From a virus (Duplodnaviria; Heunggongvirae; Uroviricota; Caudoviricetes): a stretch of DNA of 64,000 nt. The notes under the pieces are model-generated. The model saw only the letters and a list, made by a program, of their open reading frames with translations. It made no database searches and was not told the origin of the DNA. Below are positions 8,302-60,241 of this stretch, piece after piece (within the stretch, counting starts at the first letter, position 1; each line of letters starts with the position of its first letter). The stretch covers positions 77,860 through 141,859 of the IMG/VR virus record IMGVR_UViG_3300028797_000096. One strand, given 5' to 3'. The position numbers and the translations under genes were made by a program.

Positions 8302-8355
8302 GTAAGACAAGGGGTTATGTAAAAATAACCCCTTCGTTAATTGAAGGAGAACCAG

Positions 8356-8739
8356 ATGACTAACAAGCAGATATTAAAGAAATTAGAATCTACCGAAGGA
8401 AGAGAAAATGCTAAAGCAGTAAAAGAACTCTTACCACAGTGGAACTTAAAAGAATCCTTTCCAGATGATCATAATAGCATGATGCGTTATATAAGAATGC
8501 ATCAATGGGATTATGAAGACTTTGGATTTGGTATGGAAATGATATTAACAAGAGTGTTTCAAAGATATATCTTGCGTTCATATTTTGATATGAAAGAATT
8601 TAGAAGTAATCATAGAAACGTCCTAACCTCTACTTGTATTGCATTAAGTAAGATGGAAGGATTGCTTATGAATACTCAAGATGAAAAAGCATATTGTTTG
8701 TATCATTATTCGTTAAATAAGTATTACGGACATAATTAA
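8356..8739 (+). CDS. hypothetical protein
   Basis: ORF track start 8341 is a TTG inside the SD (ttgaaggagaaccagATG); ATG at 8356 preferred. Confidence 0.5.
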   Translation: MTNKQILKKLESTEGRENAKAVKELLPQWNLKESFPDDHNSMMRYIRMHQWDYEDFGFGMEMILTRVFQRYILRSYFDMKEFRSNHRNVLTSTCIALSKMEGLLMNTQDEKAYCLYHYSLNKYYGHN

Positions 8740-8750
8740 AGGAGTATAAA

Positions 8751-9497
8751 ATGAAAATTACTCGTATTAATATGAAAGGCTATATAGATCATATAGATTA
8801 TGCTGATCTTACTAAAGGAGTTTTTACAGCAAAAAAGACTCGTGTATCAGATATATATGGTTCTTATAAAGCAGATGAATGTAATGAAGTAGAAATAGAT
8901 AGTAAAGATGTAAAAGATTTGGCAAAAAAATATAGTCATGTTATTAGTGTTAGTGATATAGTAGATTACTTGCAAAAGAAAAAGTTATTACCAGCAGGTA
9001 GAGTATTTATACCAAATAACGAATGGAAGTATGACTTTATTAATGATAAAGGTGTATATAATATCTATTATGATGATACAATTCCATCTAGTAAAAAAAG
9101 ACAATCAACTGGTGTTTTACATATCTTTCACTATAAAGACTTTGTTAAATTACCTGCAACTAAGAAAGAACAAGATATGCTAGATCATTTAGCAAATCGC
9201 GCAAGAATGAAATCTTTGAATAATTTAGTATTAAAAGATAATTTCTTGAAGATACTGAATGATAATAAGTATAACGTAGAATTATATAAAGATGGTGAAA
9301 CAGTATACTTTAAGAATAAAGCAGGATGGAATAGATTAGTTCATGATGCTATTACTTACTACTTAAACAATACAATCTTAAAAGAAATAAAATGTGAAAT
9401 TGTCATGCCATTATATACTAGTAGTCATGCATGTAAATGGAGTGATTCATTCTGTAATATAGGCGATTTAAAGATGATTGTAGGTGATAAAAAGTAA
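8751..9497 (+). CDS. paralog family A protein
   Basis: 248 aa; shares a TKKEQ...L.K.N and C-terminal A(I/L).YYLN motif with the 13367 and 14293 proteins. Confidence 0.6.
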   Translation: MKITRINMKGYIDHIDYADLTKGVFTAKKTRVSDIYGSYKADECNEVEIDSKDVKDLAKKYSHVISVSDIVDYLQKKKLLPAGRVFIPNNEWKYDFINDKGVYNIYYDDTIPSSKKRQSTGVLHIFHYKDFVKLPATKKEQDMLDHLANRARMKSLNNLVLKDNFLKILNDNKYNVELYKDGETVYFKNKAGWNRLVHDAITYYLNNTILKEIKCEIVMPLYTSSHACKWSDSFCNIGDLKMIVGDKK

Positions 9498-9506
9498 AAA
9501 TATTGT

Positions 9507-9537
9507 TTTACTATTTGTTTTAGATAGTATATAATCA
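9507..9537 (+). promoter_or_regulatory. phage promoter, GTTTTAC-N18-TATAAT variant
   Basis: tgTTTTACtatttgttttagatagTATATAAT upstream of a 15-codon mini-ORF. Confidence 0.4.
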
Positions 9538-9637
9538 TGTCGTATTCAGAATAAAAGGAGTATGACATGAAGTATATATCTAGAGTTACTTCAGGTAAGA
9601 TCTTGCGTAAGTAAGATTTTATTTTGACAATAAAAAT

Positions 9638-9672
9638 GACCGAATATTTTAAATGTATTCGGTCTTTTTTTT
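9638..9672 (+). terminator. rho-independent terminator
   Basis: GACCGAATA-ttttaaatg-TATTCGGTC then TTTTTTTT. Confidence 0.75.
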
Positions 9673-9703
9673 ATGCTAATATAAATTTATAACAAAAGGA
9701 TAT

Positions 9704-10141
9704 ATGATGAGAGCAGACCATTGGATACCTATTAATGAATATATCTTTAAACACAATGGTGCAGAAGATATGGTTAAAATATCTAATATCTTAGATTTAG
9801 TTGGTAAATGTATTTATGTTCGTCCACCACACGCACGTTATAGTTCATATTATACTTTGCCTAAATACTATATCATTGGTATAGATAAAAATAATAGTAC
9901 TTTTACTGTATACCAGATTAAAGAAACAGTAGTTAAACAATATCGAGAAAATACTTATGAAAATAGTGAGTATACTACTTTTAAGTTTGACTTAGGATTA
10001 AAGAAACATATTAAAGTTAAAATGAATGCCAAAAACAATTGGTTAAAGATAGGTACTAATATAATCCGTATACAAGATATAAAAGAAACAGACCTTAAAC
10101 AAACACAAGAAGTTTGTACTTATGAAAGAATGTATGACTAA
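9704..10141 (+). CDS. paralog family B protein
   Basis: 145 aa, same length and residue pattern as 11135..11572. Confidence 0.55.
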   Translation: MMRADHWIPINEYIFKHNGAEDMVKISNILDLVGKCIYVRPPHARYSSYYTLPKYYIIGIDKNNSTFTVYQIKETVVKQYRENTYENSEYTTFKFDLGLKKHIKVKMNAKNNWLKIGTNIIRIQDIKETDLKQTQEVCTYERMYD

Positions 10142-10152
10142 AGGAGTGTAAA

Positions 10153-23663: not shown

Positions 23664-24182
23664 ATGAGTACTATTTCTTATGAATTATCAAATGTCTATA
23701 ATCCAAAGCATGAACCATTTTATGGACAAGTTGCTTGGTTAACTAGAGATATTTTGGACAGTTATGAAGGGCATTGGGATTGGTTACAATATAAATTCTT
23801 TCCGGGATTAAAAGAAGGTAAACGTGGGTATAGCTTTGCAATAGATCCATATTCTAAGCAAGTAATTACTACTAAAAGAGGTATTATTCCTGTATATACC
23901 TTAGCGGGTTGTGCTTTATTAAAAGATGAACCAGATGAAAAAAAATTATGTTGTTTATTTGTAGATCCAAATTATAGAGGTCAAAAAATTGCAAGTAAAT
24001 TGATTGAAGATAGTTTCGAAGTATTGAAAACGAATAAACCAGTTATGACAGTATCTCAACAGAATTTAAGTATGTTACAGAAACTGATTGATAGATATGG
24101 TTTTGAATTAACATCAGTTAAAGAATCTGTATACAAACCTGGTATTAAAGAATATTTTTATAATGAAGGTTTAGCTAGATAA
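23664..24182 (+). CDS. GNAT family acetyltransferase
   Basis: motif A-like CCLFVDPNYRGQKIASKLIEDS. Confidence 0.5.
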   Translation: MSTISYELSNVYNPKHEPFYGQVAWLTRDILDSYEGHWDWLQYKFFPGLKEGKRGYSFAIDPYSKQVITTKRGIIPVYTLAGCALLKDEPDEKKLCCLFVDPNYRGQKIASKLIEDSFEVLKTNKPVMTVSQQNLSMLQKLIDRYGFELTSVKESVYKPGIKEYFYNEGLAR

Positions 24183-28833: not shown

Positions 28834-28863
28834 TGTTTTACTTTTAATATTTATTTGTTATAA
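28834..28863 (+). promoter_or_regulatory. phage promoter GTTTTAC-N17-TATAAT
   Basis: tttGTTTTACttttaatatttatttgtTATAAT directly after the terminator, 7 nt before ATG 28871. Confidence 0.5.
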
Positions 28864-28870
28864 TATAAAT

Positions 28871-35156: not shown

Positions 35157-35192
35157 AATCACCAGATTTTATATTTGGTGATTTTTTGTTTT
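35157..35192 (+). terminator. rho-independent terminator
   Basis: AAATCACCA-gattttatattt-GGTGATTT then TTTTGTTTT; upstream of the Pnkp gene. Confidence 0.65.
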
Positions 35193-35239
35193 ACAATTAT
35201 TATAAAAAATTATATAATATAAATATAAAGAGGTAATAA

Positions 35240-37441
35240 ATGAAGATCTTGTTAGTTTTAAGAGGTATTCCAGGTTCTGGTAAATCTACTTGGATTAAAG
35301 AAAGAGATTTAGAAGCATACGTTTTAAGTACCGATGCTATTCGTTTATTATACTCTTCTCCAGAACAAACTATAAAAGGTAAATATATTGTTTCTAATAA
35401 ACATGATAAACATGTTTGGGCTTTCTTTAAAGAAAGATTAGAAGATCGTATGAAGAATGGTGATTTTACTATATTAGATGCTACACATACCAAAGAATCT
35501 TATTTAAAAGATTATAAAAAATTGTGTAAAGAATATAATTATCGTATGATTATTGTAGATTTTTCTTCTGTTGATTTAGATACTTGTAAAGAAAGAAATT
35601 TAATGCGGGAAAGTTATAAACAAGTACCAAATGAAGTATTAGATCGTATGTATAATCAAATAAAAGTACCATTACAAAATAAATATGAAATTTATGATTA
35701 TAATGAATTTCCTAATTTAGATAATTTTGTATATAAAATAGATGGTAATAAATGGAAAGAAGTAGTAATATTTGGTGATATACATAATTGTTATGATCCA
35801 ATAAGAAAATACTTTGAAGCATCTCCAGAATCTGATCAAAAATTATACATCTTTATTGGTGATTATTTTGATCGTGGTATTCAAGCTAAAGAAGTATTAC
35901 AGTTTTGTTTAGACCACTGTGAAAAAGAAAACTTTGTATTTTTACAAGGTAATCATGAAATATGGGCTAAGAATTATGTAAGAGATGGTGAAGCTGCTAA
36001 AATGACACCAGATTTCAAAGATTCTTTAGTACAGTTTGGTGAATTAAAAGATCAATTAAGTAAGTTTACTAGAAGATTAAAAGTAGCAGTAAATGTTAGT
36101 TTTTACTGTCAGGGTATTTATCATAGATTTTCTATTACTCATGGTGGATTAAGCTTTCCTTTAGATTATCGTACTTCTGCAATACAATGTATTAAAGGAG
36201 TAGGTGATTATGATGATTTAGATGAAGTAGAAAAAGCTTTTGGTAGTATTAATGAAAAAATGACTATGCAAGTATTAAACTACAAATGCTATAATGTACA
36301 TGGTCATCGTAATGTAACTAATAATCCAATTATAAGTGCAGACGGCTATAGTATTAACTTAGAAGGTAAAGTTGAATTTGGTGGTAATTTAAGAATAGTT
36401 GAATTATCTTATACAGACAAAATGAATATATTACCAATAGAAATACCAAATACAATTTATAACAAAGATATACAAATTCCTTCTAGTAGACATGATAATC
36501 CAATTATTCAACAATTGGATAGTAGTAGTTTAATACATAAAAAAGATTTGGGTGATGGTATAGTTTCTTATAACTTTAGTAGAGAAGCTTTTTATAGCCA
36601 AAAATGGAATAAATTAACTACTACAGCGAGAGGCTTATTTGTTGATACTAAGACAAATCAAGTAGTTGCTAGATCTTATCCTAAATTTTTTGAAGCAGAA
36701 CAGCATCCATCTACACAATGGAGAAATTTAGAAAAGACATTAGTATTTCCAGTAACTGCTTATTTGAAAGAAAATGGCTTTTTAGGTATTGTATCTGTAT
36801 ATAATGATCAATTATTTATTGCATCTAAATCTACAAATCAAGGCGAATATAAAGAAAACTTTGAGCGTATATTAAAAACACATACAAATATTGATAAATT
36901 AAAAGAATATTTAAAAGCTAATAATTGTTCCGCTATATTTGAATGTGTAGATCCACATAATGATCCGCATATTATTGAATATGTCAATGAAAAAGTTGTA
37001 TTATTAGATATAGTACAGAATGATTTTACAGATACATTTAAATCTTATGATGATGTATGGGAATTAGCTAAACAAATAGGATGTAAACCAAAAGAAATGT
37101 GTAAAGTATTTAATACCTTTGCTGAATTAAAATCTTTTATTGAAGCATTTGATAAAGATTTTCATGAAGAAATAGAAGGTTTTGTATTTGTAGATCAGAA
37201 TAATTTTATGATTAAATATAAAACACCTTTCTATAAATTCTGGAAAGACATGCGTAGAATGAAAGAATATATTAATAAAGGTGATAATGATAAATATTTT
37301 GCCGCTAAAAATGTAAAGTCTGAACAAACAAATTTGATGAATGATTTGTTTAGTTTTATGACAGGTATTAAAAATGGTGGTATTGATTTAGATACATTAT
37401 CCATTATTGATATTAAAAACAGTTATTATAATAAGGATTAA
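35240..37441 (+). CDS. Pnkp-like polynucleotide kinase / calcineurin-type phosphoesterase with C-terminal ligase-like domain
   Basis: P-loop LRGIPGSGKST; metallophosphoesterase motifs GDIHN, GDYFDRG, GNHE; C-terminal third has ligase-like elements (ARGLFVD, EGFVFV, KYKTPFYK) reminiscent of bacterial Pnkp RNA-repair enzymes. Confidence 0.65.
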   Translation: MKILLVLRGIPGSGKSTWIKERDLEAYVLSTDAIRLLYSSPEQTIKGKYIVSNKHDKHVWAFFKERLEDRMKNGDFTILDATHTKESYLKDYKKLCKEYNYRMIIVDFSSVDLDTCKERNLMRESYKQVPNEVLDRMYNQIKVPLQNKYEIYDYNEFPNLDNFVYKIDGNKWKEVVIFGDIHNCYDPIRKYFEASPESDQKLYIFIGDYFDRGIQAKEVLQFCLDHCEKENFVFLQGNHEIWAKNYVRDGEAAKMTPDFKDSLVQFGELKDQLSKFTRRLKVAVNVSFYCQGIYHRFSITHGGLSFPLDYRTSAIQCIKGVGDYDDLDEVEKAFGSINEKMTMQVLNYKCYNVHGHRNVTNNPIISADGYSINLEGKVEFGGNLRIVELSYTDKMNILPIEIPNTIYNKDIQIPSSRHDNPIIQQLDSSSLIHKKDLGDGIVSYNFSREAFYSQKWNKLTTTARGLFVDTKTNQVVARSYPKFFEAEQHPSTQWRNLEKTLVFPVTAYLKENGFLGIVSVYNDQLFIASKSTNQGEYKENFERILKTHTNIDKLKEYLKANNCSAIFECVDPHNDPHIIEYVNEKVVLLDIVQNDFTDTFKSYDDVWELAKQIGCKPKEMCKVFNTFAELKSFIEAFDKDFHEEIEGFVFVDQNNFMIKYKTPFYKFWKDMRRMKEYINKGDNDKYFAAKNVKSEQTNLMNDLFSFMTGIKNGGIDLDTLSIIDIKNSYYNKD

Positions 37442-45496: not shown

Positions 45497-45527
45497 GCTT
45501 TACTTTTAAGAAAAATAGTTCTATAAT
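45497..45527 (+). promoter_or_regulatory. phage promoter GCTTTAC-N18-TATAAT
   Basis: aatGCTTTACttttaagaaaaatagttcTATAAT. Confidence 0.5.
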
Positions 45528-46135: not shown

Positions 46136-46172
46136 GGGCGAGCGCCGGAGTCGGAGAGCCGGGGCAGACTGT
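46136..46172 (+). tRNA. tRNA-Tyr(GUA) exon 1 (intron-interrupted)
   Basis: GGGCGAG acceptor, CCGG D-stem, GCAGA anticodon stem, loop CUGU|; near-identical to E. coli tRNA-Tyr core (GCAGACTGTAAATCTGC) once spliced to exon 2. Confidence 0.65.
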
Positions 46173-46352
46173 AAAAAATTGCAGCCTTATATAGTAATAT
46201 ATAAGTGAAAATTTGGCTAAGTCGGGGAAAGCTAAGTTAAATGATATGCTAATCCCGAGCTAGGAGAAATCCGAGTGTAGAGACTTTACACCAGACATCT
46301 TATTGAGATGAAGAGAAAGTCCAGACTACAATGTGAAAACAATGTAGCAATG
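46173..46352 (+). ncRNA. group I intron (about 180 nt, ORF-less) in tRNA-Tyr anticodon loop
   Basis: inserted after U35; internal guide GCAG pairs with exon end CUGU with a U-G wobble at the splice site; shares GTGTAGAGACT and AAGTCCAGACTACAA blocks with the tRNA-Leu intron; ends in G before exon 2. Confidence 0.6.
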
Positions 46353-46402: not shown

Positions 46403-47594
46403 CAAATGAAATCCTAGAACAACTGCTATGACATCTTAGTAATGTTATCAGCTCTAGGTAAAGATACAAGGGGATGAGTTAAATTCGACAGTATATTTTT
46501 ACTGGACTCGGTTTCAATACCGATATCTCCACCATAAAGTTTGGTGATATTTAGTTTATTACGAATAGAACATTTGGTACTAGACCAAAAGAAGCATAAG
46601 GGACATTGCAATATCACCGATACAGTTTACTAAATAATTACAAAAGATTATTTAATTGACTGGCATGATAAATGAACCAGCGAACGATAACTATAAATTA
46701 AGTGCAATAGCTGCTTGATTTAAATAAAGTTATCAATCGGAGCTGGGTAGAGCTTGGCAACAGAATCTACCAAATTTATTTGCGGGCTTAGCTCAAAAAG
46801 TATAGAAAAATATTTGGCTCGTGGGAATGCATAGTGTGTTCACCTGACTGTCACTCAGGAAATCAGATGGGGGCGGTACCCATACGAGTCGCCATAAAGT
46901 TTGGGTAAGTAGTGTGAAGTATAGCACACAGCACACTGGGCTGAAGTGTTAGGGGAAGTGCCTAACCAATAATCCCACCCTCAATTTAGCTGAGACTGCA
47001 GTAGTAGGCTAAATCCCTTGACTAACGTTCCTGGTCAGAACGATCGTCACTAGTCGATAGTAGTCGGAGTTTAATGCAGGTGTGACTTCGTTAGGTTAGG
47101 CCAACTAAATTCTGCATTTTTAATGTTTATACTTATTTCGAGTGAAATAGTCTCGAATGTATTGGTGTTCGACAATACAGCTTGCTGTAACAAGTCCAAG
47201 GGAAAGAATAGGAAACCTGAAAGAGCTCTAGTAAGGTGGAATTGGAAGTATAAATGTTTACTGTTGATATACTTTTATGTATATTAATTTCGGGTTTGAT
47301 AGGCCGGTTAGCTTGTACTCTTACAAGTCAGTGATCTAAATTCCGGGTCTTACTATCATTCTCCGCTTAAATTCCTATTAGCATTAGCTAGTATGGATTG
47401 CCAGAATGTAGAAATGCATTTTTGGTTTTTGGGGTAAAGTTTCAACTACTGATTGGACACCTCAATCCGAACATCACGGAGTTCAGCTAGTGATGCTCGA
47501 CTGAACATATTTCTGGGCCTTGACCAATGGTCGAGGATTTGCCGAGGCTTTTGGTGTTATTGAGCCATCGTAGAGAATCAAAACACCTTTATAT

Positions 47595-48124: not shown

Positions 48125-48616
48125 ATGAAAGCAATTTGTCCAAAATGTGGAATAGAATTTGAAAATGATACAAATCGAAAATTTTGTTCAAGAAAATGTG
48201 TAAATAGTCGTAATATTTCACAAGAAACAAAAAAGAAAATTTCAAATAAAATGAAAGCCAGATATCAAGAACCTGAATACAGAAAACAAATTTTGAATTT
48301 AAATAGAAAATTAGGTAATCATTTACATGAAGAAAAATTAAAAAGATTTGTAAAAGCAAAAAATGGGCAAATTTTAGATATTACATATGGGGAATTAGAA
48401 GAATACCAAAAAACTCATTTGGTATGTGAAATTTGTGGTAAAACTGAAATTGCTTCACATAACATAATAAAAAAGATATATCGAAATTATGTCGTGATCA
48501 TGATCATAAAACTTCTAAATTTCGTGGATTATTATGTAGTAATTGTAACAGAAAGTTAGGTTGGTTTGAAAATTTTAAAGATGAAATTTTCAAATATTTG
48601 AATAAAAAGCACCAGT
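48125..48616 (+). pseudogene. NUMOD3 + Endonuclease-VII/HNH-type homing endonuclease with frameshift
   Basis: N-terminal NUMOD3-like SQETKKKISNKMK; frame 2 reads ...LVCEICGKTEIASHNIIKK then must shift to frame 1 (DISKLCRDHDHKTSKFRGLLCSNCNRKLGWF) at the A6 run 48468-48473 to restore the CxxC...DHDH...RGLLC..CN motif. Confidence 0.6.
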
Positions 48617-48682
48617 AGTTTAATAGTAGAATGTAACCTTGCCAAGGTTAAGACCTCGGAGCATAACCGGGTTGGTGCACCA
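48609..48682 (+). tRNA. tRNA-Gly(GCC)-like, atypical arms
   Basis: GCACCAG/TTGGTGC acceptor, perfect anticodon stem TAACC/GGTTA with loop TTGCCAA, CCA; D-arm weak and T-loop AGCATAA non-canonical; overlaps the stop of the HNH pseudogene. Confidence 0.45.
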
Positions 48683-48782: not shown

Positions 48783-48872
48783 AGGAGTGGTGGTAGAGCG
48801 GTTTAATACAGCTGATTACTAATCAGCCGAAGCAGTAATGTTTCCGGGGGTTCAAATCCCTCCCACTCCGCC
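48783..48872 (+). tRNA. class II tRNA (Ser-like) with anticodon loop TTACTAA (anticodon ACU?)
   Basis: GGAGTGG/CCACTCC acceptor, GAGCGGTTTAA D-loop as in tRNA-Ser, perfect anticodon stem GCTGA/TCAGC, long variable arm, GGGGTTCAAATCCC, CCA; A at position 34 is unusual. Confidence 0.6.
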
Positions 48873-48888
48873 ATTACTTTATTAATTT

Positions 48889-48923
48889 TGGCCCTGTGGC
48901 GGAATTGGTAGACGCTGCAGACT
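48889..48923 (+). tRNA. tRNA-Leu(UAA) exon 1 (intron-interrupted)
   Basis: GGCCCTG acceptor, GGCGGAATTGGTAGACGC D-arm, GCAGA anticodon stem, loop CUU| ; intron inserted after U34 as in cyanobacterial/plastid tRNA-Leu(UAA). Confidence 0.65.
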
Positions 48924-49628
48924 TAGACGAAAATGAGTGTATCATAATTTATTGAAAAAGTAGTTCTATATCATAAGGAGTTAATCCTATGAAAAATAGA
49001 ATTACAGATCAAGAAATGATTGATATTATCATTAAGTCTCAAACAATGGCTTTAGCTGCTAAAAGATGTGGTATGGCATATACAACATTTATTAGGCATG
49101 CTAAAAGATTGGGTATTTATAAACCTAATCAAGGCGGAAAAGGTACTGAGAAAAAAAGATCTGCTAAAATATCTATAGAAGAAATTTTAGCAGGAAAGTA
49201 TCCTCAGTATCAAACATATAAATTAAAAACAAGATTAATAGATGAAGGATATAAAGAAGATAAGTGTGAGAAATGTGGGTGGTGTGAAAAATTAAAAAAT
49301 AGCAAATATACTCCATGCGAATTACATCATATCGATGGAAATCCTGAAAATCATTTATTATCTAATTTAATTATATTGTGTCCAAATTGCCATTCCTTAA
49401 CTAAATCTTATAGGTTTAGAAGAGGTAAGACTAATGAGCAACAAGGTAGGAAACTTCTCGATTGAATGCTGTCAAATTCGGTGAAAGGTTTTATAATCCT
49501 AACGCCGAGCGAAGCCTAGAAATAGGAACGTGTAGAGACTTAACGGCAGCCACCTAAGTAGAAATATATGGTGAAGACAAAGTCCAGACTACAAACAAGA
49601 AATTGGTAGTGAAAGCTATAGTAGTAAG
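48924..49628 (+). ncRNA. group I intron (Azoarcus / cyanobacterial tRNA-Leu type) carrying an HNH ORF
   Basis: 705 nt; guide GAGT pairs with exon end ACUU (U-G at splice site); core blocks TGTCAAATTCGGTGAAA and GTGTAGAGACTTAACGGCAGCCACCTAAG match the Azoarcus pre-tRNA-Ile intron recalled from memory; terminal G at 49628. Confidence 0.65.
48989..49465 (+). CDS. intron-encoded HNH homing endonuclease
   Basis: CEKCGWCEKL...CELHHIDGNPENHLLSNLIILCPNCH (HNH with two Cys pairs); lies wholly inside the tRNA-Leu group I intron; SD aaggag. Confidence 0.7.
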   Translation: MKNRITDQEMIDIIIKSQTMALAAKRCGMAYTTFIRHAKRLGIYKPNQGGKGTEKKRSAKISIEEILAGKYPQYQTYKLKTRLIDEGYKEDKCEKCGWCEKLKNSKYTPCELHHIDGNPENHLLSNLIILCPNCHSLTKSYRFRRGKTNEQQGRKLLD

Positions 49629-49682
49629 AAAATCTGTTGACAGTTAAATGTCGTACCGGTTCGATTCCGGTCAGGGCCACCA
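49629..49682 (+). tRNA. tRNA-Leu(UAA) exon 2
   Basis: AAAA-TCTGT, variable arm TGACAGTTAAATGTCGT, ACCGG-TTCGATT-CCGGT, CAGGGCC-A-CCA pairing exactly with exon 1 acceptor. Confidence 0.65.
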
Positions 49683-49694
49683 AAAAATTTATAT

Positions 49695-49770
49695 GGGGTT
49701 GTAGCTCAGTTGGTAGAGCATCTGCTTTGCAAGCAGAGAGTCGTCAGTTCGAGTCTGATCAGCTCCACCA
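49695..49770 (+). tRNA. tRNA-Ala(UGC)
   Basis: G3-U70 wobble identity pair, anticodon loop TTTGCAA, CCA. Confidence 0.8.
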
Positions 49771-49771
49771 T

Positions 49772-49848
49772 AGGAAGGTAGTTCAGATGGTTAGAATGTC
49801 GCTCTGATACAGCGAAGGTCGTGAGTTCGAATCTCACTCTTCCTACCA
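49772..49848 (+). tRNA. tRNA-Ile(GAU)
   Basis: AGGAAGG acceptor, anticodon loop CTGATAC, GTGAGTTCGAATCTCAC, CCA. Confidence 0.8.
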
Positions 49849-49856
49849 TAGTTTAT

Positions 49857-49932
49857 GCCTGCTTAGTTCAGTTGGTAGAACGACTGATTTGTAATCAGTA
49901 AGTCGGCGGTTCAAGTCCGTCAGCAGGCACCA
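49857..49932 (+). tRNA. tRNA-Thr(UGU)
   Basis: GCCTGCT/AGCAGGC acceptor, anticodon loop TTTGTAA, CCA. Confidence 0.8.
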
Positions 49933-50321: not shown

Positions 50322-50747
50322 ATGTTTATTAATACAAATGGAGGTTTGATTGATACTCCAGAACGCTTAATCAATCATTTTGCATCTCTTCCTGAATATA
50401 CTGATATTCAGAAGTCTTTAATTGAAGATCATTGTGCTTGCTGTGCTAAAAGCTTTGCTAGAGGTGTTGGTAAAGTTACAAAAGAAGAGGTATGGTTTGG
50501 TGCTTTAGATGTGTTTCCATATATATCTAATAAGCATGAATTTACCAATGAAGATTTTTTAATTAAAAGATGGGGTATTGATTGGCAAAAAGCTAGGTTA
50601 AAAGAAAGACCAGATGTAGATATTGATAAATCTACTAAAAGTCAATTAGGAAAGATTTTTTACGATGCCTTATTGAGAGATAAAAACGCTATTTATAAAT
50701 GGCGTAGAGTAGAAGGCAAATATTTTGAATATTGTCGTATAAAATAG
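50322..50747 (+). CDS. hypothetical protein
   Basis: 141-aa ORF within tRNA island; CACCAK motif. Confidence 0.5.
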   Translation: MFINTNGGLIDTPERLINHFASLPEYTDIQKSLIEDHCACCAKSFARGVGKVTKEEVWFGALDVFPYISNKHEFTNEDFLIKRWGIDWQKARLKERPDVDIDKSTKSQLGKIFYDALLRDKNAIYKWRRVEGKYFEYCRIK

Positions 50748-50835: not shown

Positions 50836-51108
50836 ATGTCATTTAACCGTAAACAAACACCAATTGCAACAAACGATCATTGGAATTTATATTTATTAGG
50901 ATTTTGTAAAGAAAATGTTCGTAAAGCTGTGTTAATTAATTATCTTACTAATGATGAATTATCTGCAAAAGTTAATGTAGGTGCAGATATTACTGGTAAA
51001 AATACACAATATACTGTAATTGAAGCGGTTGATGAAAAAACAAATCATTTAGTTGATTTTACTAAAACATTTGTTGTTCCGGGTAAATATGTTAAAACTC
51101 GTGGATAA
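50836..51108 (+). CDS. hypothetical protein
   Basis: 90-aa ORF, SD aagaggtaaaatcATG. Confidence 0.5.
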   Translation: MSFNRKQTPIATNDHWNLYLLGFCKENVRKAVLINYLTNDELSAKVNVGADITGKNTQYTVIEAVDEKTNHLVDFTKTFVVPGKYVKTRG

Positions 51109-51377
51109 TAAATATTAAAAGTTTTGGTCTTATAGGTCAAAGACTAAAATGACGGGGACAGCCTGAAGATAGGAGGCTGCTGCTTGGATCGGCAATATAG
51201 GGTCTCACAAAATACATAAGATTGACCTCACAGTGTTTTCACGCTGATAATCTTATGGTGAGTGTATGCAAAACCTGATTGAGTTGGTTCAAATCCAGAC
51301 AGTTAGGTAGGCAAGGTGTTGGAGCATGAACACACTTAGATGGGTTGCTCCTTATAGTTTTATAGGAAGGATATGAT

Positions 51378-51611
51378 ATGAAAGATATATGTACTGAAAT
51401 TATAAAAGAGTTAGAAAAAATGGGATATACTGCATTTCAAATAACTCCAGAGATGTCTATTCATGAAGATTTAGGTTTAGATTCATTAGATACTATTGAA
51501 TTGGTTGCTAAATTAGAAGAAAAATTTGATATTCGTATAAAAGATGATGATTTAGTAGATGTAAAAACGATTCAAGATATTGTAGATATTGCTAATAAAT
51601 ATTTAAAATGA
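51378..51611 (+). CDS. acyl carrier protein
   Basis: 77 aa acidic; phosphopantetheine attachment motif DLGLDSLDTIELVAKLEEKFDIRI. Confidence 0.8.
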   Translation: MKDICTEIIKELEKMGYTAFQITPEMSIHEDLGLDSLDTIELVAKLEEKFDIRIKDDDLVDVKTIQDIVDIANKYLK

Positions 51612-51734
51612 GAGTTTAACCGATAAAAGAAATAGTTCTATATAATATGAAAAAAATAAATGTATGTTTTTGGCCATGCTTTCCTAGTACCTTTGGAGGT
51701 AAGTGTTAATCATACTTTTATAGAAGATTAGATA

Positions 51735-51764
51735 CCTCCAGAAATAAAAAGCTGGAGGTTTTTT
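51735..51764 (+). terminator. rho-independent terminator after the ACP gene
   Basis: CCTCCAG-aaataaaaag-CTGGAGG then TTTTTT. Confidence 0.8.
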
Positions 51765-51853
51765 AATTGAGTTTGGTAGTTGTAGTATAATCAATACACT
51801 TCCCAATGGGGTAGAAGAGATGTAAGTAAAATCTTATCGATTACCACAGTTTA

Positions 51854-51931
51854 TCGGAATGTAGGATAATCTGGTTATTCCGCCTGTTTTGGGTACAGGA
51901 GACTCCCGGTTCAAATCCGGGCATTCCGACC
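51854..51931 (+). tRNA. tRNA-Pro(UGG)
   Basis: CGGAATG/CATTCCG acceptor, anticodon loop TTTGGGT, CCCGGTTCAAATCCGGG, CCA. Confidence 0.8.
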
Positions 51932-51937
51932 AGTTTT

Positions 51938-52014
51938 TGGCTGGGTAGCTCAGTTGGTAGAGCAAGGGACTGAAAATCCCTGTGTCAGTGGTTCGATCCC
52001 GCTCTCAGCCACCA
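51938..52014 (+). tRNA. tRNA-Phe(GAA)
   Basis: GCTCAGTTGGTAGAGC D-arm, anticodon loop CTGAAAA, CCA. Confidence 0.85.
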
Positions 52015-52019
52015 ATCTT

Positions 52020-52093
52020 GGCCAGGTGGCAGAATGATTATGCAGAGGACTGCAAATCCTTGTACATCGGTTTGATTCCGGTCCTGGCCTCCA
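52020..52093 (+). tRNA. tRNA-Cys(GCA)
   Basis: GGCCAGG/CCTGGCC acceptor, anticodon loop CTGCAAA, discriminator U, CCA. Confidence 0.75.
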
Positions 52094-52098
52094 AATCT

Positions 52099-52172
52099 AG
52101 GTCATTAGTTTAGTGATAAAACAAAGATCTCCAAAATCTTAGTCGGTGGTTTGATTCCATCATGACCTGCCA
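52099..52172 (+). tRNA. tRNA-Trp(CCA)
   Basis: AGGTCAT/ATGACCT acceptor, anticodon loop CTCCAAA, CCA. Confidence 0.75.
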
Positions 52173-52303
52173 TTATTTTGGAAATTTAGTTAAAAAAAGT
52201 ATTTACAAATAAAAATAAATGTATATAATATATAATATCTACTTGCTGCCATACTAGATTTCCCAGTTACCATCGTAGTAAGTACAGCAAGTAGGTAGTT
52301 TAT

Positions 52304-52571: not shown

Positions 52572-52805
52572 ATGTCAAAAATGCAAAAAGAATCTGTTGG
52601 TTGGCATAATAATTATCACATGTATAAACTCGTTGATGGTGTAGGGCAAGAACACTACTGGGCAGAGTCGGATTATGTGGGAGAAGGTTATGTAACTGTA
52701 ACAGGGGAAAATGTCGATCAACTTAAATTAGCAATAGATGATATAAATCTCCGCATGAAAATCTTTTCTACTTTACATCGAAAATATAGAAAAAGGTGTA
52801 AGTAA
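52572..52805 (+). CDS. hypothetical protein
   Basis: 77-aa ORF. Confidence 0.45.
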   Translation: MSKMQKESVGWHNNYHMYKLVDGVGQEHYWAESDYVGEGYVTVTGENVDQLKLAIDDINLRMKIFSTLHRKYRKRCK

Positions 52806-55233: not shown

Positions 55234-57810
55234 ATGGCTAAACTTATAATCGGTGAGTCTAATCCAATCCCAGCTAAAATTTTAGAGCAAAAAGTTCCTT
55301 TGCCTTTTAGTGAAATCTCTTCAAACTATGAAGTAGTAGAAGGTAAGTTGTGTAAAAGAACTACTTCAACAGAAGAACTTTTATCTATTTGGCCCAAACC
55401 TGGTGATATGGAAGGAGTTACCAATTTAGGTGAAGGTGTATTTAAAGATGCGGCAAAAAATTGGACAGCGAATCAGCGAGATGCTCTTACAAAGATAGAT
55501 TTTTCTTCTTTGACTAGTCTTACTAATAAAAATGTTTTATATGATGCATTTTATACAGGTCAATATCCAAATGTAACTGAAATTGATTTTTCAAATTTAA
55601 AAGAAATAAATGTAGAAGGGGCTACTGGTAATGCGAATGGTACTTTAAATTATACTTTTTATCAGTTACGTACGACTACTTATGGAAAACCAATAACTAT
55701 AAACTTTAATTCCTTAGAAAAAATAAAAGGTAAATATACTTGTTGGTATACTTTTTATGGATGTAAGGATTTATATTATGTGGATTTTCCTAAATTAAAA
55801 GAAATAACAACAGACGGAACAGGCAATGCAGCATATTATATGTTTAGTAACACAAAAGATTTAATAGAAGCTAGATTTGAAAGCTTAAAAAGAATTGAAG
55901 GTACTACGGGTCTCTTTGGTGGAGGAAATGCTTCTGGAATTCAAAAAATATATATGCCAGCTTTAAAGCAAATAGAAAATTCTAATGATATGTTTAAAAA
56001 CTGCGCAAATTTAACCGAAGTTGTTCTTGGTACTTCAGATTTGATTTTAGGACCTAGTCATGAGGGTATTAATGCAACAAATGGCTTATTTTATAATTGT
56101 ACAGGTTTAACCTCTATTAATTTAGATAGCGTAATAAAAATAGATGAAAGAGGAGCTTGTTGTGCGTTTAAACAATGCTCTAATTTACAGCATGTTAGTT
56201 TAGCTAACCTTAAAGAAATTGGACCGGCAGGTGGTTGGGAAATATTTCAATATTGTACATCTTTAACTTCTATAAGTTTTGATAGTTTGATGTTATTAAA
56301 GGATAATCAAGCATTATATTTAGCATTTAGAGGATGTACAAGTTTAACAGATATATATTTTCCTAAATTAGGTGATATAGATGCTCCTGCTGTTGAAGGT
56401 TTAGTTGAAGATTGTACAGATGTAAAAATACATTTTTCTAAAGATTTATATCCACTACTTATAAATAAATATGGAGATTGGTTTATTGAAAATTTATTAG
56501 CTAGGGTAAGTGGAACAAATACTTCACTTTTATTTGATTTACCTGAATTAGAAAAAGTAAAGGTTACAATTTTAGCAGATTTTGTTAAAAGAAGTTATAC
56601 TACTACAAATACATTTTGTAAGACTATTATATATAATAGAGAAACTGATTTTTATGAAGAATCAAGTAATGTTGATATCGTATATGATGATAATTTAGGT
56701 TGTGGAGTAAGTACAATTGAAATATTTAAGGATAAGTTAACTGAGCAAACAGAATTATATATACATAAAACTGATAAAACAAATTATAGTATGTATAGAT
56801 TAGAAGAAGCTTTTATTACTATAAAATTACCTCATGAAAAAGGTACTCCTTGGGAAAATAATATAGAAGTAGATTTACGTGCGGCAACAAGACCTTTTGA
56901 TTTAAAATGTATAAGTATTGAAGTAGGCAATGAAGATATTGTACATGGTCAAGGTGGATTTATGGTTGGGCCTAACTTAGGTACTGATAGAATAATAGCA
57001 TATGATGGTCATCCTGCTACTAATAATTATCGTACATTTTATGTTGGTCATACAACAAATGATTCTGATTTATATATATATTATAATTTGAGTCCAAGAG
57101 ATACGTATAACTATGAGTATTTAGAGTCTTATCCATACGCATATAGTGTTAAAACTCCTCAACCTCTTTTACTTAATTTTCCTGAATATACAATTCATTC
57201 AGATTGGACCGCTAATGATTTTATAGTAGTTACAACATTTTCACCTAGCGAAGCAGGCGAATGGTGGTCACTTGCAGAAAGAATTGAAGGGGCTAGCACG
57301 CCTGTAATGTTAGCTAAATTCTGTTGTACTGATGGAAGTATAAATTCGAGTTTTAGATCAGTAAATTTGTCTAATTGTATTTCTGATAATTTATTTAAAC
57401 ATGGTACAAAATTACAAATAGACATTGATAGTAGATTTGAACATTATCCAGAATTAGATGATGCTTTAGTTTATATGGGTTTAGTAAAAGAACCTAATAG
57501 AAATTATACATACAATGAAGTTGTTCAATTACAGTGGTCAAATTTATTCTATCATTCGACTGCAATTTTAGATTCTCAATTTGCTGGTACTGTTAGTAAT
57601 GGGGAAATATGGTCTCCTGATGTTCCGGGTGAAGGAAAGTATGTAGGCATGTCACATTCATTTTGTATAACTAAAGAAGCTTTATTATTACAAGGTTGGG
57701 TAGAGGGTGATCCATTATGGCTACAAATTGGTCAATGTAATGCTTCTAATGTACAAGATCCAGCGTCGATACAACTTTATATAAAAAATATTTTAATAAG
57801 GGAAGATTAA
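55234..57810 (+). CDS. BspA-type leucine-rich-repeat (LRR_5) receptor-binding-like protein
   Basis: 858 aa; about 12 repeats of the F..C..L..I.FP.L..I pattern (e.g. YMFSNTKDLIEARFESLKRIEG, MFKNCANLTEVVLG); N-terminus MAKLI shared with the next gene. Confidence 0.6.
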   Translation: MAKLIIGESNPIPAKILEQKVPLPFSEISSNYEVVEGKLCKRTTSTEELLSIWPKPGDMEGVTNLGEGVFKDAAKNWTANQRDALTKIDFSSLTSLTNKNVLYDAFYTGQYPNVTEIDFSNLKEINVEGATGNANGTLNYTFYQLRTTTYGKPITINFNSLEKIKGKYTCWYTFYGCKDLYYVDFPKLKEITTDGTGNAAYYMFSNTKDLIEARFESLKRIEGTTGLFGGGNASGIQKIYMPALKQIENSNDMFKNCANLTEVVLGTSDLILGPSHEGINATNGLFYNCTGLTSINLDSVIKIDERGACCAFKQCSNLQHVSLANLKEIGPAGGWEIFQYCTSLTSISFDSLMLLKDNQALYLAFRGCTSLTDIYFPKLGDIDAPAVEGLVEDCTDVKIHFSKDLYPLLINKYGDWFIENLLARVSGTNTSLLFDLPELEKVKVTILADFVKRSYTTTNTFCKTIIYNRETDFYEESSNVDIVYDDNLGCGVSTIEIFKDKLTEQTELYIHKTDKTNYSMYRLEEAFITIKLPHEKGTPWENNIEVDLRAATRPFDLKCISIEVGNEDIVHGQGGFMVGPNLGTDRIIAYDGHPATNNYRTFYVGHTTNDSDLYIYYNLSPRDTYNYEYLESYPYAYSVKTPQPLLLNFPEYTIHSDWTANDFIVVTTFSPSEAGEWWSLAERIEGASTPVMLAKFCCTDGSINSSFRSVNLSNCISDNLFKHGTKLQIDIDSRFEHYPELDDALVYMGLVKEPNRNYTYNEVVQLQWSNLFYHSTAILDSQFAGTVSNGEIWSPDVPGEGKYVGMSHSFCITKEALLLQGWVEGDPLWLQIGQCNASNVQDPASIQLYIKNILIRED

Positions 57811-57811
57811 G

Positions 57812-60241
57812 ATGGCTAAATTAATAAATGATGATTCTGTACAGACTTTAATTAAAAATCTTAATGTACCTACACATATAAGTGGTACAAAACAGGTATA
57901 TCATGCAGATGAAAATGGCGTTTTAGTAGTAGGTCCTTCATATGAAGAGCTAGCTTCATCTATTTGGCCAGATTTTGATATGACAGGTGTTACTGATTTA
58001 GGTACAGAAGTATTTTATAGTGTATATGATAAGATAACTGATCCTAGTATTAGGAAAATTAATTTATCTTCTTTAACAAGTATTACCGGGGATAAATGTT
58101 TAACTTATGCATTTAGAAGCAATTCTAGTACACCTGGTTGTTATAATATTTCAGATATTGATTTTTCAAATGTAGTTACTATAGCAAATACAGGAACTAC
58201 TAATTATGGGCCATTAGAAGGAGCTTTTCAGTATTTTCATAATAATACTTCAGGAGTACCTGTAAGACTACGCTTTGATAATTTACAAGAAATTACAGGT
58301 GCTTATGCAATATCTCAAGCTTTTCAATATACCAGAGATATTTATGAATTATCTATGCCTAAATTAAAACGAATATCAACAGGAGCGCAAGTCGCAGCAA
58401 ATGCATTTAGTTATTGTTATAATTTACAAACAGTAAATTTTGAGCATTTAGAATATATACAAAATGCATATAATATGTTTATGAGTTGTCCAGAATTAAC
58501 TAGTGTAACTTTAGATAATATAAGTTATATTGAAAATTGTTATGGTATGTTTAAAGGTTGTTCAAACTTAAATCACGTTGATTTTGGATCAGAAGCGGAT
58601 AATCTTACATTATATGACAATCACACTAGTGGTACTGCACCGACAAGCGTGACAGGAACTACTAATGGTATATTTGAAAATTGTTATTCTTTAGAGACGA
58701 TTGATTTAGAATATATACAATATATTGAAGAGCTAGGTGCAGTTGGAATATTTAAAAACTGTACTAGTTTAAAACATTATGATGATGAAGGATATGATAG
58801 ATGGGGACCTCTTGAATTTACTTCATTAAAAAGAATTGGTAAGAATGGATTAAATCTAGGTTTTTATGGATGTAGTAATACTCCAGCTATATATTTTAAT
58901 ATGCTTGATATAGTAGAATCATATGGATTACGTTTTGCTTTTGGTAATTGTACATCTCTAAGAGATGTATATTTTCCAAAATTAAGTGATTTCAATATAA
59001 ACTTTTTAGATCAAGCTTTTTATAATTGTGGTAATGTAAACGTTCATTTTTCATCTAGCTTAGCTAATAATCAAGATATATTAGATGCTATTGCTGCAGC
59101 TGGAGGTGAAAATATAAATGCAATATTTGATCAACCTGCATTACCTACCTTTAATGTAGTAATTTATACATATGAACCTGCACAAGATGGAATAGGTTTT
59201 ATATATAAAGGTAAAAATTATTCTAATAATTTTCAATCAGAATGGGATTCTGAACGGTCTTGTTATAAATTTTATCAATCTATTGTTTATTTAGGCGAAG
59301 ATGATAATATATATGTATATAATAAACGTACAATAGTTACAACACCTGGAGTAGTATGTATAAAAACAGTAAATAATGATAATTCTGATATGGAATTTGA
59401 TTTACGTGTTCCAGATCAAGATCCTAATTTAGTTACTGTAAATTGGCAAGCAAATCAGCTTGTTAATTCAATTTTATTTAATGTTTATAATACAGCTGGT
59501 ACGACACTTATATGTGGAAATGTATATGATATAACAGAAAGTACTAGTGGTGCATTTGGATATTTTACACCAAATTCTTTCTTAGTTGAAGGAGATTTTA
59601 CTACATCTACTGCGGGATATTTACCACAAAGTTATTCTATAATTCCAGCACCTGTTACAGGTGAATTAATCGATATTGCATTCCAACCTGTTGAAACTAT
59701 TATGACTATTACTGCTGCAGATTCTAATTTATTAACTCCAGCAATTGCAGAAGGTGATAAATGGTCTATAGAAAATCTTCAAGATTATACAACGAGTGAA
59801 TATGAAGATGTAATAAGAATACATCAAGACAGTTATGCAAAAGCCTGGGAAACTGCTAAAGGTATAGAATTTACTATGCCAAATAATATAGATAATTTTA
59901 TATTCACTATATATGCTAATGCAGATAGTGAAAAGAATTATGATTTTGGATATATTGCTTTAAGAAATACAATAAGTACTATACCAGCAACCACTGGTAA
60001 TGCAAATGGTACAAATGTTAAATATTGGAAAGATTCTTTAGGTATATTACTTATGAAAGATACAGATAATCATAATGGTTGTAATATTCAAGAATGGAGT
60101 GCAACAGCTACTAGAAGTCAAATTGAATCACTTTTAGGTAGTGGTCCATATTATATACAGATAGGATTTAGCCAAGATAGTAGTACTACTAAATGGACAA
60201 ATTCTTTCTATGTAAAAGAAATAAAAGTCCAAGGTTATTAA
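57812..60241 (+). CDS. BspA-type LRR (LRR_5) receptor-binding-like protein, paralog
   Basis: 809 aa; same repeat architecture (AFSYCYNLQTVNFEHLEYIQNAYNMFMSCPELTSVTLDNISYIENCYGMFKGCSNLNHVDF). Confidence 0.6.
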   Translation: MAKLINDDSVQTLIKNLNVPTHISGTKQVYHADENGVLVVGPSYEELASSIWPDFDMTGVTDLGTEVFYSVYDKITDPSIRKINLSSLTSITGDKCLTYAFRSNSSTPGCYNISDIDFSNVVTIANTGTTNYGPLEGAFQYFHNNTSGVPVRLRFDNLQEITGAYAISQAFQYTRDIYELSMPKLKRISTGAQVAANAFSYCYNLQTVNFEHLEYIQNAYNMFMSCPELTSVTLDNISYIENCYGMFKGCSNLNHVDFGSEADNLTLYDNHTSGTAPTSVTGTTNGIFENCYSLETIDLEYIQYIEELGAVGIFKNCTSLKHYDDEGYDRWGPLEFTSLKRIGKNGLNLGFYGCSNTPAIYFNMLDIVESYGLRFAFGNCTSLRDVYFPKLSDFNINFLDQAFYNCGNVNVHFSSSLANNQDILDAIAAAGGENINAIFDQPALPTFNVVIYTYEPAQDGIGFIYKGKNYSNNFQSEWDSERSCYKFYQSIVYLGEDDNIYVYNKRTIVTTPGVVCIKTVNNDNSDMEFDLRVPDQDPNLVTVNWQANQLVNSILFNVYNTAGTTLICGNVYDITESTSGAFGYFTPNSFLVEGDFTTSTAGYLPQSYSIIPAPVTGELIDIAFQPVETIMTITAADSNLLTPAIAEGDKWSIENLQDYTTSEYEDVIRIHQDSYAKAWETAKGIEFTMPNNIDNFIFTIYANADSEKNYDFGYIALRNTISTIPATTGNANGTNVKYWKDSLGILLMKDTDNHNGCNIQEWSATATRSQIESLLGSGPYYIQIGFSQDSSTTKWTNSFYVKEIKVQGY

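Follow-up and report, generated by a model that had tools for sequence, protein, structure and literature searches.

Why should a phage carry a lone gene for an acyl carrier protein (ACP) in the middle of its tRNA genes, and what might such a protein do in an infected cell? The gene in question lies in a 64,000-nucleotide stretch of viral DNA (the window, in what follows), and a first, sequence-only reading of that stretch had recognised it as an ACP gene while leaving the role of its product unclear. In the current study, we compared the gene, its product and its surroundings with sequence profiles, solved structures, cellular genomes and other phages.

Identity of the gene product

Three features define the gene:

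51378 to 51611, + strand: coding sequence of the ACP, 77 amino acids, with an ATG start and the stop codon within the range
51483 to 51485, + strand: codon of Ser36, the predicted 4'-phosphopantetheine attachment site within D35-S36-L37, which aligns with Ser36 of E. coli ACP
51364 to 51371, + strand: Shine-Dalgarno sequence AGGAAGGA, read from the sequence, 6 nt before the ATG of the ACP

The product, MKDICTEIIKELEKMGYTAFQITPEMSIHEDLGLDSLDTIELVAKLEEKFDIRIKDDDLVDVKTIQDIVDIANKYLK, is acidic (pI 4.37, with 19 D plus E against 10 K plus R) and carries the DSL motif at residues 35 to 37. The sequence-only reading had described this ATG-initiated ORF as encoding an acidic 77-residue protein with the canonical DSL motif, and it was accurate on both points. 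In Pfam, the protein scored 50.5 bits against PF00550 (PP-binding; cutoff 20.8, E=2.5e-13) and passed PF14573 (PP-binding_2; 32.5 against a cutoff of 32). It also matched PHROG 5934, ‘acyl carrier protein’ (E=3.1e-15, 57.1 bits), with residues 13 to 76 aligned on positions 25 to 88 of the 93 in the profile. When compared by phmmer with the sequences of solved structures, residues 10 to 74 matched the type II fatty acid synthesis (FAS) ACPs of the PDB (Aquifex, E. coli and many more) at E~1e-11, and the DSLDT(V/I)ELV core aligned with them without gaps.

An AlphaFold2 model, built from a three-sequence alignment, had a mean pLDDT of 85.1 and predicted helices at residues 2-14, 36-50, 56-59 and 65-76; Ser36 would therefore sit at the N terminus of helix II. 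The top matches of this model in a Foldseek search of the PDB were all ACPs (TM 0.85-0.89, rmsd 1.2-1.9 Å). Taking sequence and structure together, the best matches were type II FAS ACPs in complex with FabZ, FabG, FabI, FabH, FabD and LpxA/D. The PP-binding fold is thus backed at three levels (sequence profile, sequences of solved structures and predicted fold), and the identification, which the sequence-only reading had staked on a profile search, therefore holds. The ORF encodes a genuine ACP, with a four-helix bundle as its predicted fold.

What kind of ACP it is proved harder to say. The NCBIfam models for AcpP were its best matches in that collection, yet every one of them fell below its curated cutoff (NF002148, 65.6 against 71; TIGR00517, 61.2 against 70.45; others in the NF002148-NF002151 set, 55.4 against 66 and 55.1 against 106), so that the protein cannot be classed as an AcpP equivalog. 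Like E. coli AcpP, it is 77 residues long, and the two align without gaps and with the DSL serine at the same number; the four-helix fold and the acidity are likewise those of bacterial type II AcpP (E. coli, 1L0H/1T8K; B. subtilis, 2X2B; T. maritima, 6LVU). D35, D38, E41, E47, E48, I54 and D56 of E. coli AcpP are all conserved. However, the phage protein is only ~35-43% identical to E. coli AcpP, and four of its positions have become basic (A45K, E49K, E53R and P55K). These replacements map to the helix II-loop-helix III face that is contacted by FAS enzymes. Moreover, whereas housekeeping AcpP is encoded in or near a fab cluster (fabD-fabG-acpP-fabF), the ACP described here is phage encoded and lies outside any such cluster.

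The residues on which activation depends have fared differently from this face. In vivo modification by E. coli AcpS requires D35, E41 and E47/E48 of AcpP (bioRxiv 10.1101/2025.01.28.635281), and all of these are found at the same positions in the phage ACP, as are S36, L37 and D38. Bacteria with several ACPs offer a parallel, in that their auxiliary ACPs are phosphopantetheinylated by the cell's own phosphopantetheinyl transferase (PPTase), yet the paralogues have no function in fatty acid synthesis (PMC5686131). P. aeruginosa AcpP2 and AcpP3 and E. faecalis AcpB resemble the phage ACP in being AcpP-like but not housekeeping; they differ from it in that they are chromosomal, have regulatory or unknown roles and belong to defined hosts.

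That the AcpS-binding residues are kept while the rest of the interaction face has changed is compatible with a role as a decoy or regulator. The phage protein, perhaps as apo-ACP, would bind host partners of ACP, for which AcpS, PlsX/PlsB, a FabT-type repressor, SpoT or MukB may be proposed, and so shut down or rewire lipid synthesis or signalling in the course of host takeover. Excess apo-ACP is reportedly toxic in E. coli, a finding attributed to Keating, Carey and Cronan in 1995. ACPs also serve as structural or regulatory subunits of MukBEF, of a cysteine desulfurase complex, of complex I and of MmpL5/Emb, as seen among the PDB matches, and one report describes E. faecalis AcpB as an auxiliary ACP used in regulating fatty acid synthesis (PMC6509188). 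On the other hand, conservation of the full DSL motif and of the hydrophobic core is not something that a pure decoy would require, and our literature searches found no phage ACP acting as a decoy or regulator. We regard this explanation as unlikely, albeit worth weighing.

Relatives of the protein are few and distant. A word-indexed search of 5.8 billion proteins returned the ACP itself, a one-residue variant and one protein of 47% identity on a 1.8-kb contig, and nothing else. An exhaustive search of 1.84 billion cluster representatives, the output of which was dominated by multi-ACP megasynthases whose repeats sum their scores, found no relative above ~50% identity apart from the ACP's own variant. 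Among 185,579 species genomes, the best ACPs were 36-52% identical to the phage protein and were scattered over many phyla, and there is consequently no signal of a host or cellular origin. On these comparisons, the phage ACP forms an isolated, very divergent lineage.

The phage and its tRNA island

The gene belongs to an uncultured phage of ~231 kb with a T4-type capsid gene. An identical ACP was found on a contig of 231,566 bp, and ENA sample ERZ27257207 holds the same genome in two contigs (k141_2687070, 95,497 bp, and k141_7130665, 136,184 bp), in which the 20 kb around the ACP gene match the window base for base. Consistent with the original assignment of this DNA to a phage, the window contains a Gp23-type (T4-type) major capsid gene (PF07068, 16716-18257, - strand), the product of which reaches no more than 34% identity with deposited phage capsids. 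Other phage markers are LRR_5/fibre-repeat proteins downstream of the ACP, HNH endonucleases, group I introns and the tRNA island. Large LRR_5 (BspA-type leucine-rich repeat) proteins form a long run (55234-60241, and 10536-19727 of contig L008) that adjoins a fibre-repeat protein and is probably a diversified set of receptor-binding proteins. No DNA-level relatives of the window were found among 50,697 phage records. Scans of IMG/VR with a 348-aa protein and the peptide deformylase of this phage returned unrelated ~40-kb phages or distant matches, none carrying an ACP, and a metagenome scan with its uracil-DNA glycosylase (UDG) returned two short contigs (58-59% identity) in which tRNAs were present and the ACP region was absent.

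The surroundings of the ACP gene include the following features, in order of position:

45499 to 45527, + strand: promoter of the TTTAC[AT] family, the nearest upstream of the ACP, ahead of UDG and the tRNA island
49695 to 49932, + strand: tRNA-Ala, tRNA-Ile and tRNA-Thr, upstream of the ACP
50322 to 50747, + strand: ORFan of 141 amino acids, sharing the inter-tRNA gap with the ACP
50836 to 51108, + strand: ORFan of 90 amino acids in the same gap, adjoining the leader on its upstream side
51106 to 51116, + strand: left copy of TAATAAATATT, the 11-nt direct repeat bracketing the leader-plus-ACP unit
51109 to 51377, + strand: ORF-free leader of 269 nt (GC 39.8%, against 23.9% for the ACP gene and 29.6% for the window)
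51222 to 51251, + strand: candidate sigma-70-like promoter within the leader, TTGACC-18-GATAAT, with 10 of 12 consensus matches by consensus scan only
51593 to 51603, + strand: right copy of TAATAAATATT, within codons 72-76 of the ACP
51734 to 51764, + strand: intrinsic terminator, ACCTCCAG, a 10-nt loop and CTGGAGGT, then TTTTTT
51855 to 52172, + strand: tRNA-Pro, tRNA-Phe, tRNA-Cys and tRNA-Trp, downstream of the ACP
52202 to 52229, + strand: promoter of the TTTAC[AT] family, the next after the ACP terminator

With tRNAs for Ala, Ile and Thr on one side and for Pro, Phe, Cys and Trp on the other, the ACP gene does lie within a tRNA island, as had been claimed from the sequence. ARAGORN found 14 tRNAs in the island, Rfam one more at 48609-48679, and a further one at 48890-49682 is split by an intron. 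This last tRNA, labelled Ser(aga) when introns were allowed in ARAGORN, is interrupted in its anticodon loop by a 702-nt intron that holds an HNH endonuclease ORF (48989-49465; PHROG 10822, 3.6e-20) and a group I intron core (49397-49609; 65.1 bits in Rfam, gathering score 50). Another group I intron core lies at 46162-46345, just past the UDG gene (56.8 bits, gathering score 50). At 48784-48873, beside tRNA-Ser(TGA), there is a tRNA-Ser whose anticodon, ACT, is unusual (wobble A), and the same pair recurs at 351-435 of a related metagenomic contig, L060. The ORF-poor interval 46473-47590, in which GC rises to 0.49, gave sub-threshold Rfam matches to alpha_tmRNA (36.4 bits) and to permuted tmRNA (22.9 bits), and a tRNA-Asp at 46816-46894 with relaxed ARAGORN; it may contain one or more unrecognised structured RNAs.

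The two 11-nt repeats are the only copies of TAATAAATATT in the 64 kb. One ENA contig (L033, from ERZ27256849) carries in its positions 1-1234 an H29Y allele, a single SNP away from the ACP of the window, and joins position 51603 directly to 51117. Such a junction implies either a tandem duplication or a circle of the 487-bp unit, and, because it creates a stop codon, it also accounts for a 75-aa variant of the protein (P0002). As the junction is backed by 18 nt of one assembly only, we say no more than that the leader-plus-ACP unit may be duplicated in one sample. We also considered, and rejected, the repeat-bracketed unit as an integron cassette; on inspection, no integrase was seen, and TAATAAATATT at the junction is not a GTTRRRY core.

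Such a setting raises the question of whether the ACP is anything more than a functionless passenger, picked up in a recombination-prone tRNA island. Islands of this kind gather mobile DNA, and this one holds two group I introns and two HNH genes; the repeats, the possible duplication and the isolation of the lineage point the same way. However, the ORF is intact, with a strong Shine-Dalgarno sequence, every key residue and a confident predicted fold, and its base composition (GC 23.9%) is phage-like, fully ameliorated to that of its carrier. It has also been retained across several samples, the protein being identical or one residue different on contigs from four of them. A passenger without function therefore seems very improbable to us.

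The leader that precedes the gene is itself unusual. It contains a tRNA T-loop-like element, GGTTCAAATCC, identical to the T-loops of three tRNAs of the island, and it folds at z=-2.2; relaxed ARAGORN (80% threshold) made only a sub-threshold tRNA-like call, at 51222-51307. It had no Rfam match even at E<=10 on 821 nt and no second copy in the window or at the compared loci, and an exact 20-mer from it had no match in IMG/VR. It could be a decayed tRNA or an unrecognised RNA element. The possibility that the ACP is an intron-borne ORF was rejected, since Rfam showed nothing flanking the gene at that same E value.

Transcription of the ACP could begin at either of two places. A strongly conserved promoter family, TTTAC[AT]-N16-17-TATAAT, has 13 sites on the + strand of the window, 12 of them intergenic (examples are 15992-16019, 28837-28864, 35190-35218, 45499-45527 and 52202-52229); the sites often run on as ATAAAT and often follow a run of T. 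The member at 45499-45527 is a possible start of a unit that ends at the ACP terminator, and the second candidate is the leader promoter at 51222-51251. The ACP would thus be either the last gene of a host-type unit of ~6 kb that includes tRNAs, or a small unit of its own.

At the other end, the terminator has a stem of 8 bp (51734-51741 with 51752-51759) followed by six T. The region (51 nt) folds at -15.8 kcal/mol (z=-4.0, equalled by 0 of 200 shuffles), and no other terminator with a perfect stem occurs on the + strand from 45 to 56 kb; the one reason that a consensus scanner overlooked it is the 10-nt loop, as that scanner accepts loops of up to 8 nt. The sequence-only reading had given the gene its own terminator. 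The hairpin is real, but it may not be the ACP's alone: it may end the longer unit, or a small transcript downstream may use it as well. Between the ACP stop and the terminator (51634-51766) there is a promoter-like motif, AGTTCTATATAAT, together with a Cys-rich mini-ORF of 20 codons (51648-51710, MKKINVCFWPCFPSTFGGKC) that has no obvious Shine-Dalgarno sequence, and a small transcript of ~110 nt sharing the ACP terminator may arise from this region.

A different motif, AGTTCTA, is a candidate late-promoter element. It has 6 matches in the window against 2.2 expected, which is modest support, and it stands before the capsid gene, the fibre gene at 60305 and two further genes, at 52572 and 53844, and not before the ACP. 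Its positions include 18490 (- strand), 52533, 53704 and 60265, as well as 51634, just past the ACP stop. The placement of the ACP in a region of host-type promoters, and not behind the motif of the capsid and fibre genes, is a further point in favour of the decoy or regulator discussed above.

Partner genes and other phage ACPs

The sequence-only reading had noted that no other fatty acid or polyketide genes were nearby. That statement extends to the ~84 kb from 10 kb before the window to 10 kb after it, in which precomputed Pfam annotation contained no PPTase, ketosynthase, acyltransferase, thioesterase, adenylating enzyme or other FAS or polyketide synthase (PKS) gene. The domains that were present are GNAT, sigma-70 region 4, Band_7, M16 peptidase, a kinase-phosphatase-RNA ligase fusion, SNase, YkuD, peptide deformylase, NUDIX, UDG, IMPDH and DnaJ. 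A six-frame phmmer search of the same ~84 kb with AcpS and Sfp queries (approximate sequences) gave noise only, at E>0.4 throughout. The proposed search for a PPTase or acyltransferase was therefore negative for the former in the ~84 kb covered of this ~231-kb genome, and for the latter it turned up only a generic GNAT (23664-24182), the sole gene of acyltransferase fold, 27 kb from the ACP. It follows that activation of the ACP would depend on the host.

The immediate neighbours are mostly ORFans. The 141-aa ORFan had no match in Pfam, PHROG, NCBIfam, PADLOC or the PDB, and its AlphaFold2 model (pLDDT 38.5) was too poor to use; the 90-aa ORFan had no significant match in Pfam, PHROG, NCBIfam or PADLOC.

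Lone ACPs are not unusual in phages. They have a PHROG family of their own, and a tblastn search found ACPs in 31 phage records. In eight annotated phage genomes (Bajun, RSL1, Serratia 2050H1, Yersinia fHe-Yen9-04, BCSR5, Harreka_1, Manatee Spring siphovirus and Vibrio P018-4), the ACP stands alone: its neighbours are hypothetical genes, and none is annotated as a lipid or PKS partner. As in the present case, the stand-alone ACPs of PHROG 5934 and 4154 are lone, small and mostly from large phages; examples are RSL1 ORF083, BAJUN_00790 of Brevundimonas phage Bajun, Serratia phage 2050H1_100, g153 of Yersinia phage fHe-Yen9-04, the ACP of Burkholderia phage BCSR5 and gp68 of Olleya phage Harreka_1. 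The known phage ACPs are at most 45% identical to the one described here, and some are C-terminal domains of longer proteins, whereas ours is stand-alone; unlike them, it also lies inside a tRNA array, behind a GC-rich leader of 269 nt. When the ORFs surrounding ten phage ACPs were all compared with one another, nothing proved to be shared except the ACPs themselves. That the ACP is the sole shared gene in these ten contexts, and is alone in the eight genomes, points to universal host partners. We conclude that the window ACP is a new, very divergent example of an already familiar class of phage accessory genes.

In RSL1, a tRNA splicing ligase gene directly precedes the ACP gene. In the window, 10 kb before the tRNA island, the gene at 35240-37441 encodes an RNA repair enzyme of the Pnkp/Rnl type, 733 aa long, in which a kinase domain (KTI12/AAA_33) is fused to metallophosphatase and T4 RNA-ligase-1 domains. 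The occurrence of an RNA-repair or ligase gene together with an ACP in both phages is probably a coincidence.

The literature on these proteins is sparse. Of phage ACPs it has been said that their ‘function remains unclear’ (PMC5463345) and that they are ‘rarely found’, in that case near a spanin (PMC7760394), and the literature that we found reports no functional test of any phage ACP. The same report detected the ACP of Eneladusvirus jumbo phages by LC-MS/MS in virions, along with SPFH and DnaJ-like proteins (PMC7760394). This could suggest that the ACP belongs to the virion or has a structural role, with no part in acyl transfer, since the phage studied here also encodes Band_7/SPFH and DnaJ proteins and its fibre and LRR genes begin 2.5 kb downstream of the ACP. 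However, between the ACP and that structural block lie the terminator, a cluster of tRNAs and a further promoter, no AGTTCTA precedes the gene, and the conserved attachment serine favours carrier chemistry. We think a role in the virion most unlikely.

In other viruses, the ACP does have company. Roseobacter prophages carry fabG-acpP-fabF (PMC8224337), and on three IMG/VR contigs (L001-L003), an ACP homolog directly follows an FA_desaturase ORF, with a second desaturase close by. This homolog shares the PP-binding domain of the window ACP and is 52% identical to it over residues 22-69; it differs, as do the roseobacter prophage ACPs, in having adjacent lipid enzymes, of which the window ACP has none within 84 kb. 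Region 7000-15500 of these otherwise unrelated viral contigs also contains two Asp/Arg-hydroxylase-like genes, an FkbM methyltransferase gene, a QueC-like gene and a permuted tmRNA.

These cases bear on the possibility that the ACP is a dedicated carrier for a pathway encoded by the phage, one that, for instance, acylates or lipidates a component of the phage or of the envelope. That pathway's enzymes would have to be encoded in the other ~147 kb, beyond the ~84 kb inspected, or be among the ORFans that make up most of the neighbourhood. The sub-threshold AcpP scores and the altered partner-binding face are in line with such a specialised carrier; in bacteria, ACP paralogues are as a rule specialised (PMC5686131), ACP homologs adjoin phage-borne desaturases on the three contigs just described, and Flavobacterium jumbo phages have ACP-containing multigene ‘host-interface’ modules (PMC13573597). 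Yet acyltransferase, ligase, ketosynthase and PPTase are all missing from the 84 kb, save for the distant GNAT, and no neighbour is conserved across the contexts in which phage ACPs occur. A dedicated phage pathway thus seems to us an improbable explanation, though not a negligible one.

Possible roles during infection

The phage ACP is best explained as a functional, stand-alone type II (AcpP-like) accessory carrier, activated by a PPTase of the host and working with the host's acyl-ACP enzymes. We put this forward tentatively, as quite possible though short of probable. The ~231-kb phage would carry the ACP as an accessory gene (a ‘moron’ or auxiliary metabolic gene), transcribed from the sigma-70-like promoter family of the tRNA island, or from the weaker promoter in the leader, as far as the hairpin at 51734-51764. 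Translation would start from the strong ribosome-binding site, and an AcpS-type PPTase of the host, to go by the conserved contact residues, would convert the apo-ACP to the holo form at Ser36. Holo-ACP would then presumably exchange acyl groups with acyl-ACP enzymes of the host, and not of the phage, so that lipid metabolism might be supplemented or redirected during infection.

This host-directed carrier is supported by the retention of the AcpS contacts, by the FAS-type fold and by the absence, within the regions compared, of a phage PPTase or a conserved phage partner. It gains further support from the fact that where phage ACPs do have recognisable neighbours, these are lipid enzymes (the desaturases and fabG-acpP-fabF). 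The host's own ACP is abundant and stable, so that it is not obvious what the phage would gain from an additional one. The case is also weakened by the missed AcpP cutoffs, by the re-charged interaction face and by the precedent of paralogous ACPs that are modified but do not act in FAS (PMC5686131).

A more speculative alternative, and one that we consider distinctly unlikely, is that the protein is no helper of lipid synthesis but a phage-specific hub that mimics ACP, is coexpressed with the tRNA island and is redirected by its re-charged face. The AcpP surface could have been kept just enough for host AcpS and ACP-binding proteins, with K45, K49, R53 and K55 redirecting the rest. Such a hub could titrate or reprogram an ACP-dependent checkpoint of the host (lipid synthesis, the stringent response or SMC function), or it could serve an ORFan enzyme, and the 487-bp leader-plus-ACP unit might be amplifiable as a means of adjusting dosage.

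Taken by itself, the window ACP is an ordinary example of the stand-alone ACPs of phages and would not surprise a specialist; because the phage is uncultured, it does not make the role of these proteins any more testable than the cultured examples do. Its interest lies in the class to which it belongs. Many phages, unrelated to one another and for the most part large, have a gene for a stand-alone ACP. The preserved AcpS residues, the lack of a phage partner in 84 kb and the lack of any shared neighbour argue that phage ACPs generally plug into host machinery. If this were demonstrated, these small genes would represent a widespread route by which phages tap or throttle bacterial lipid metabolism.
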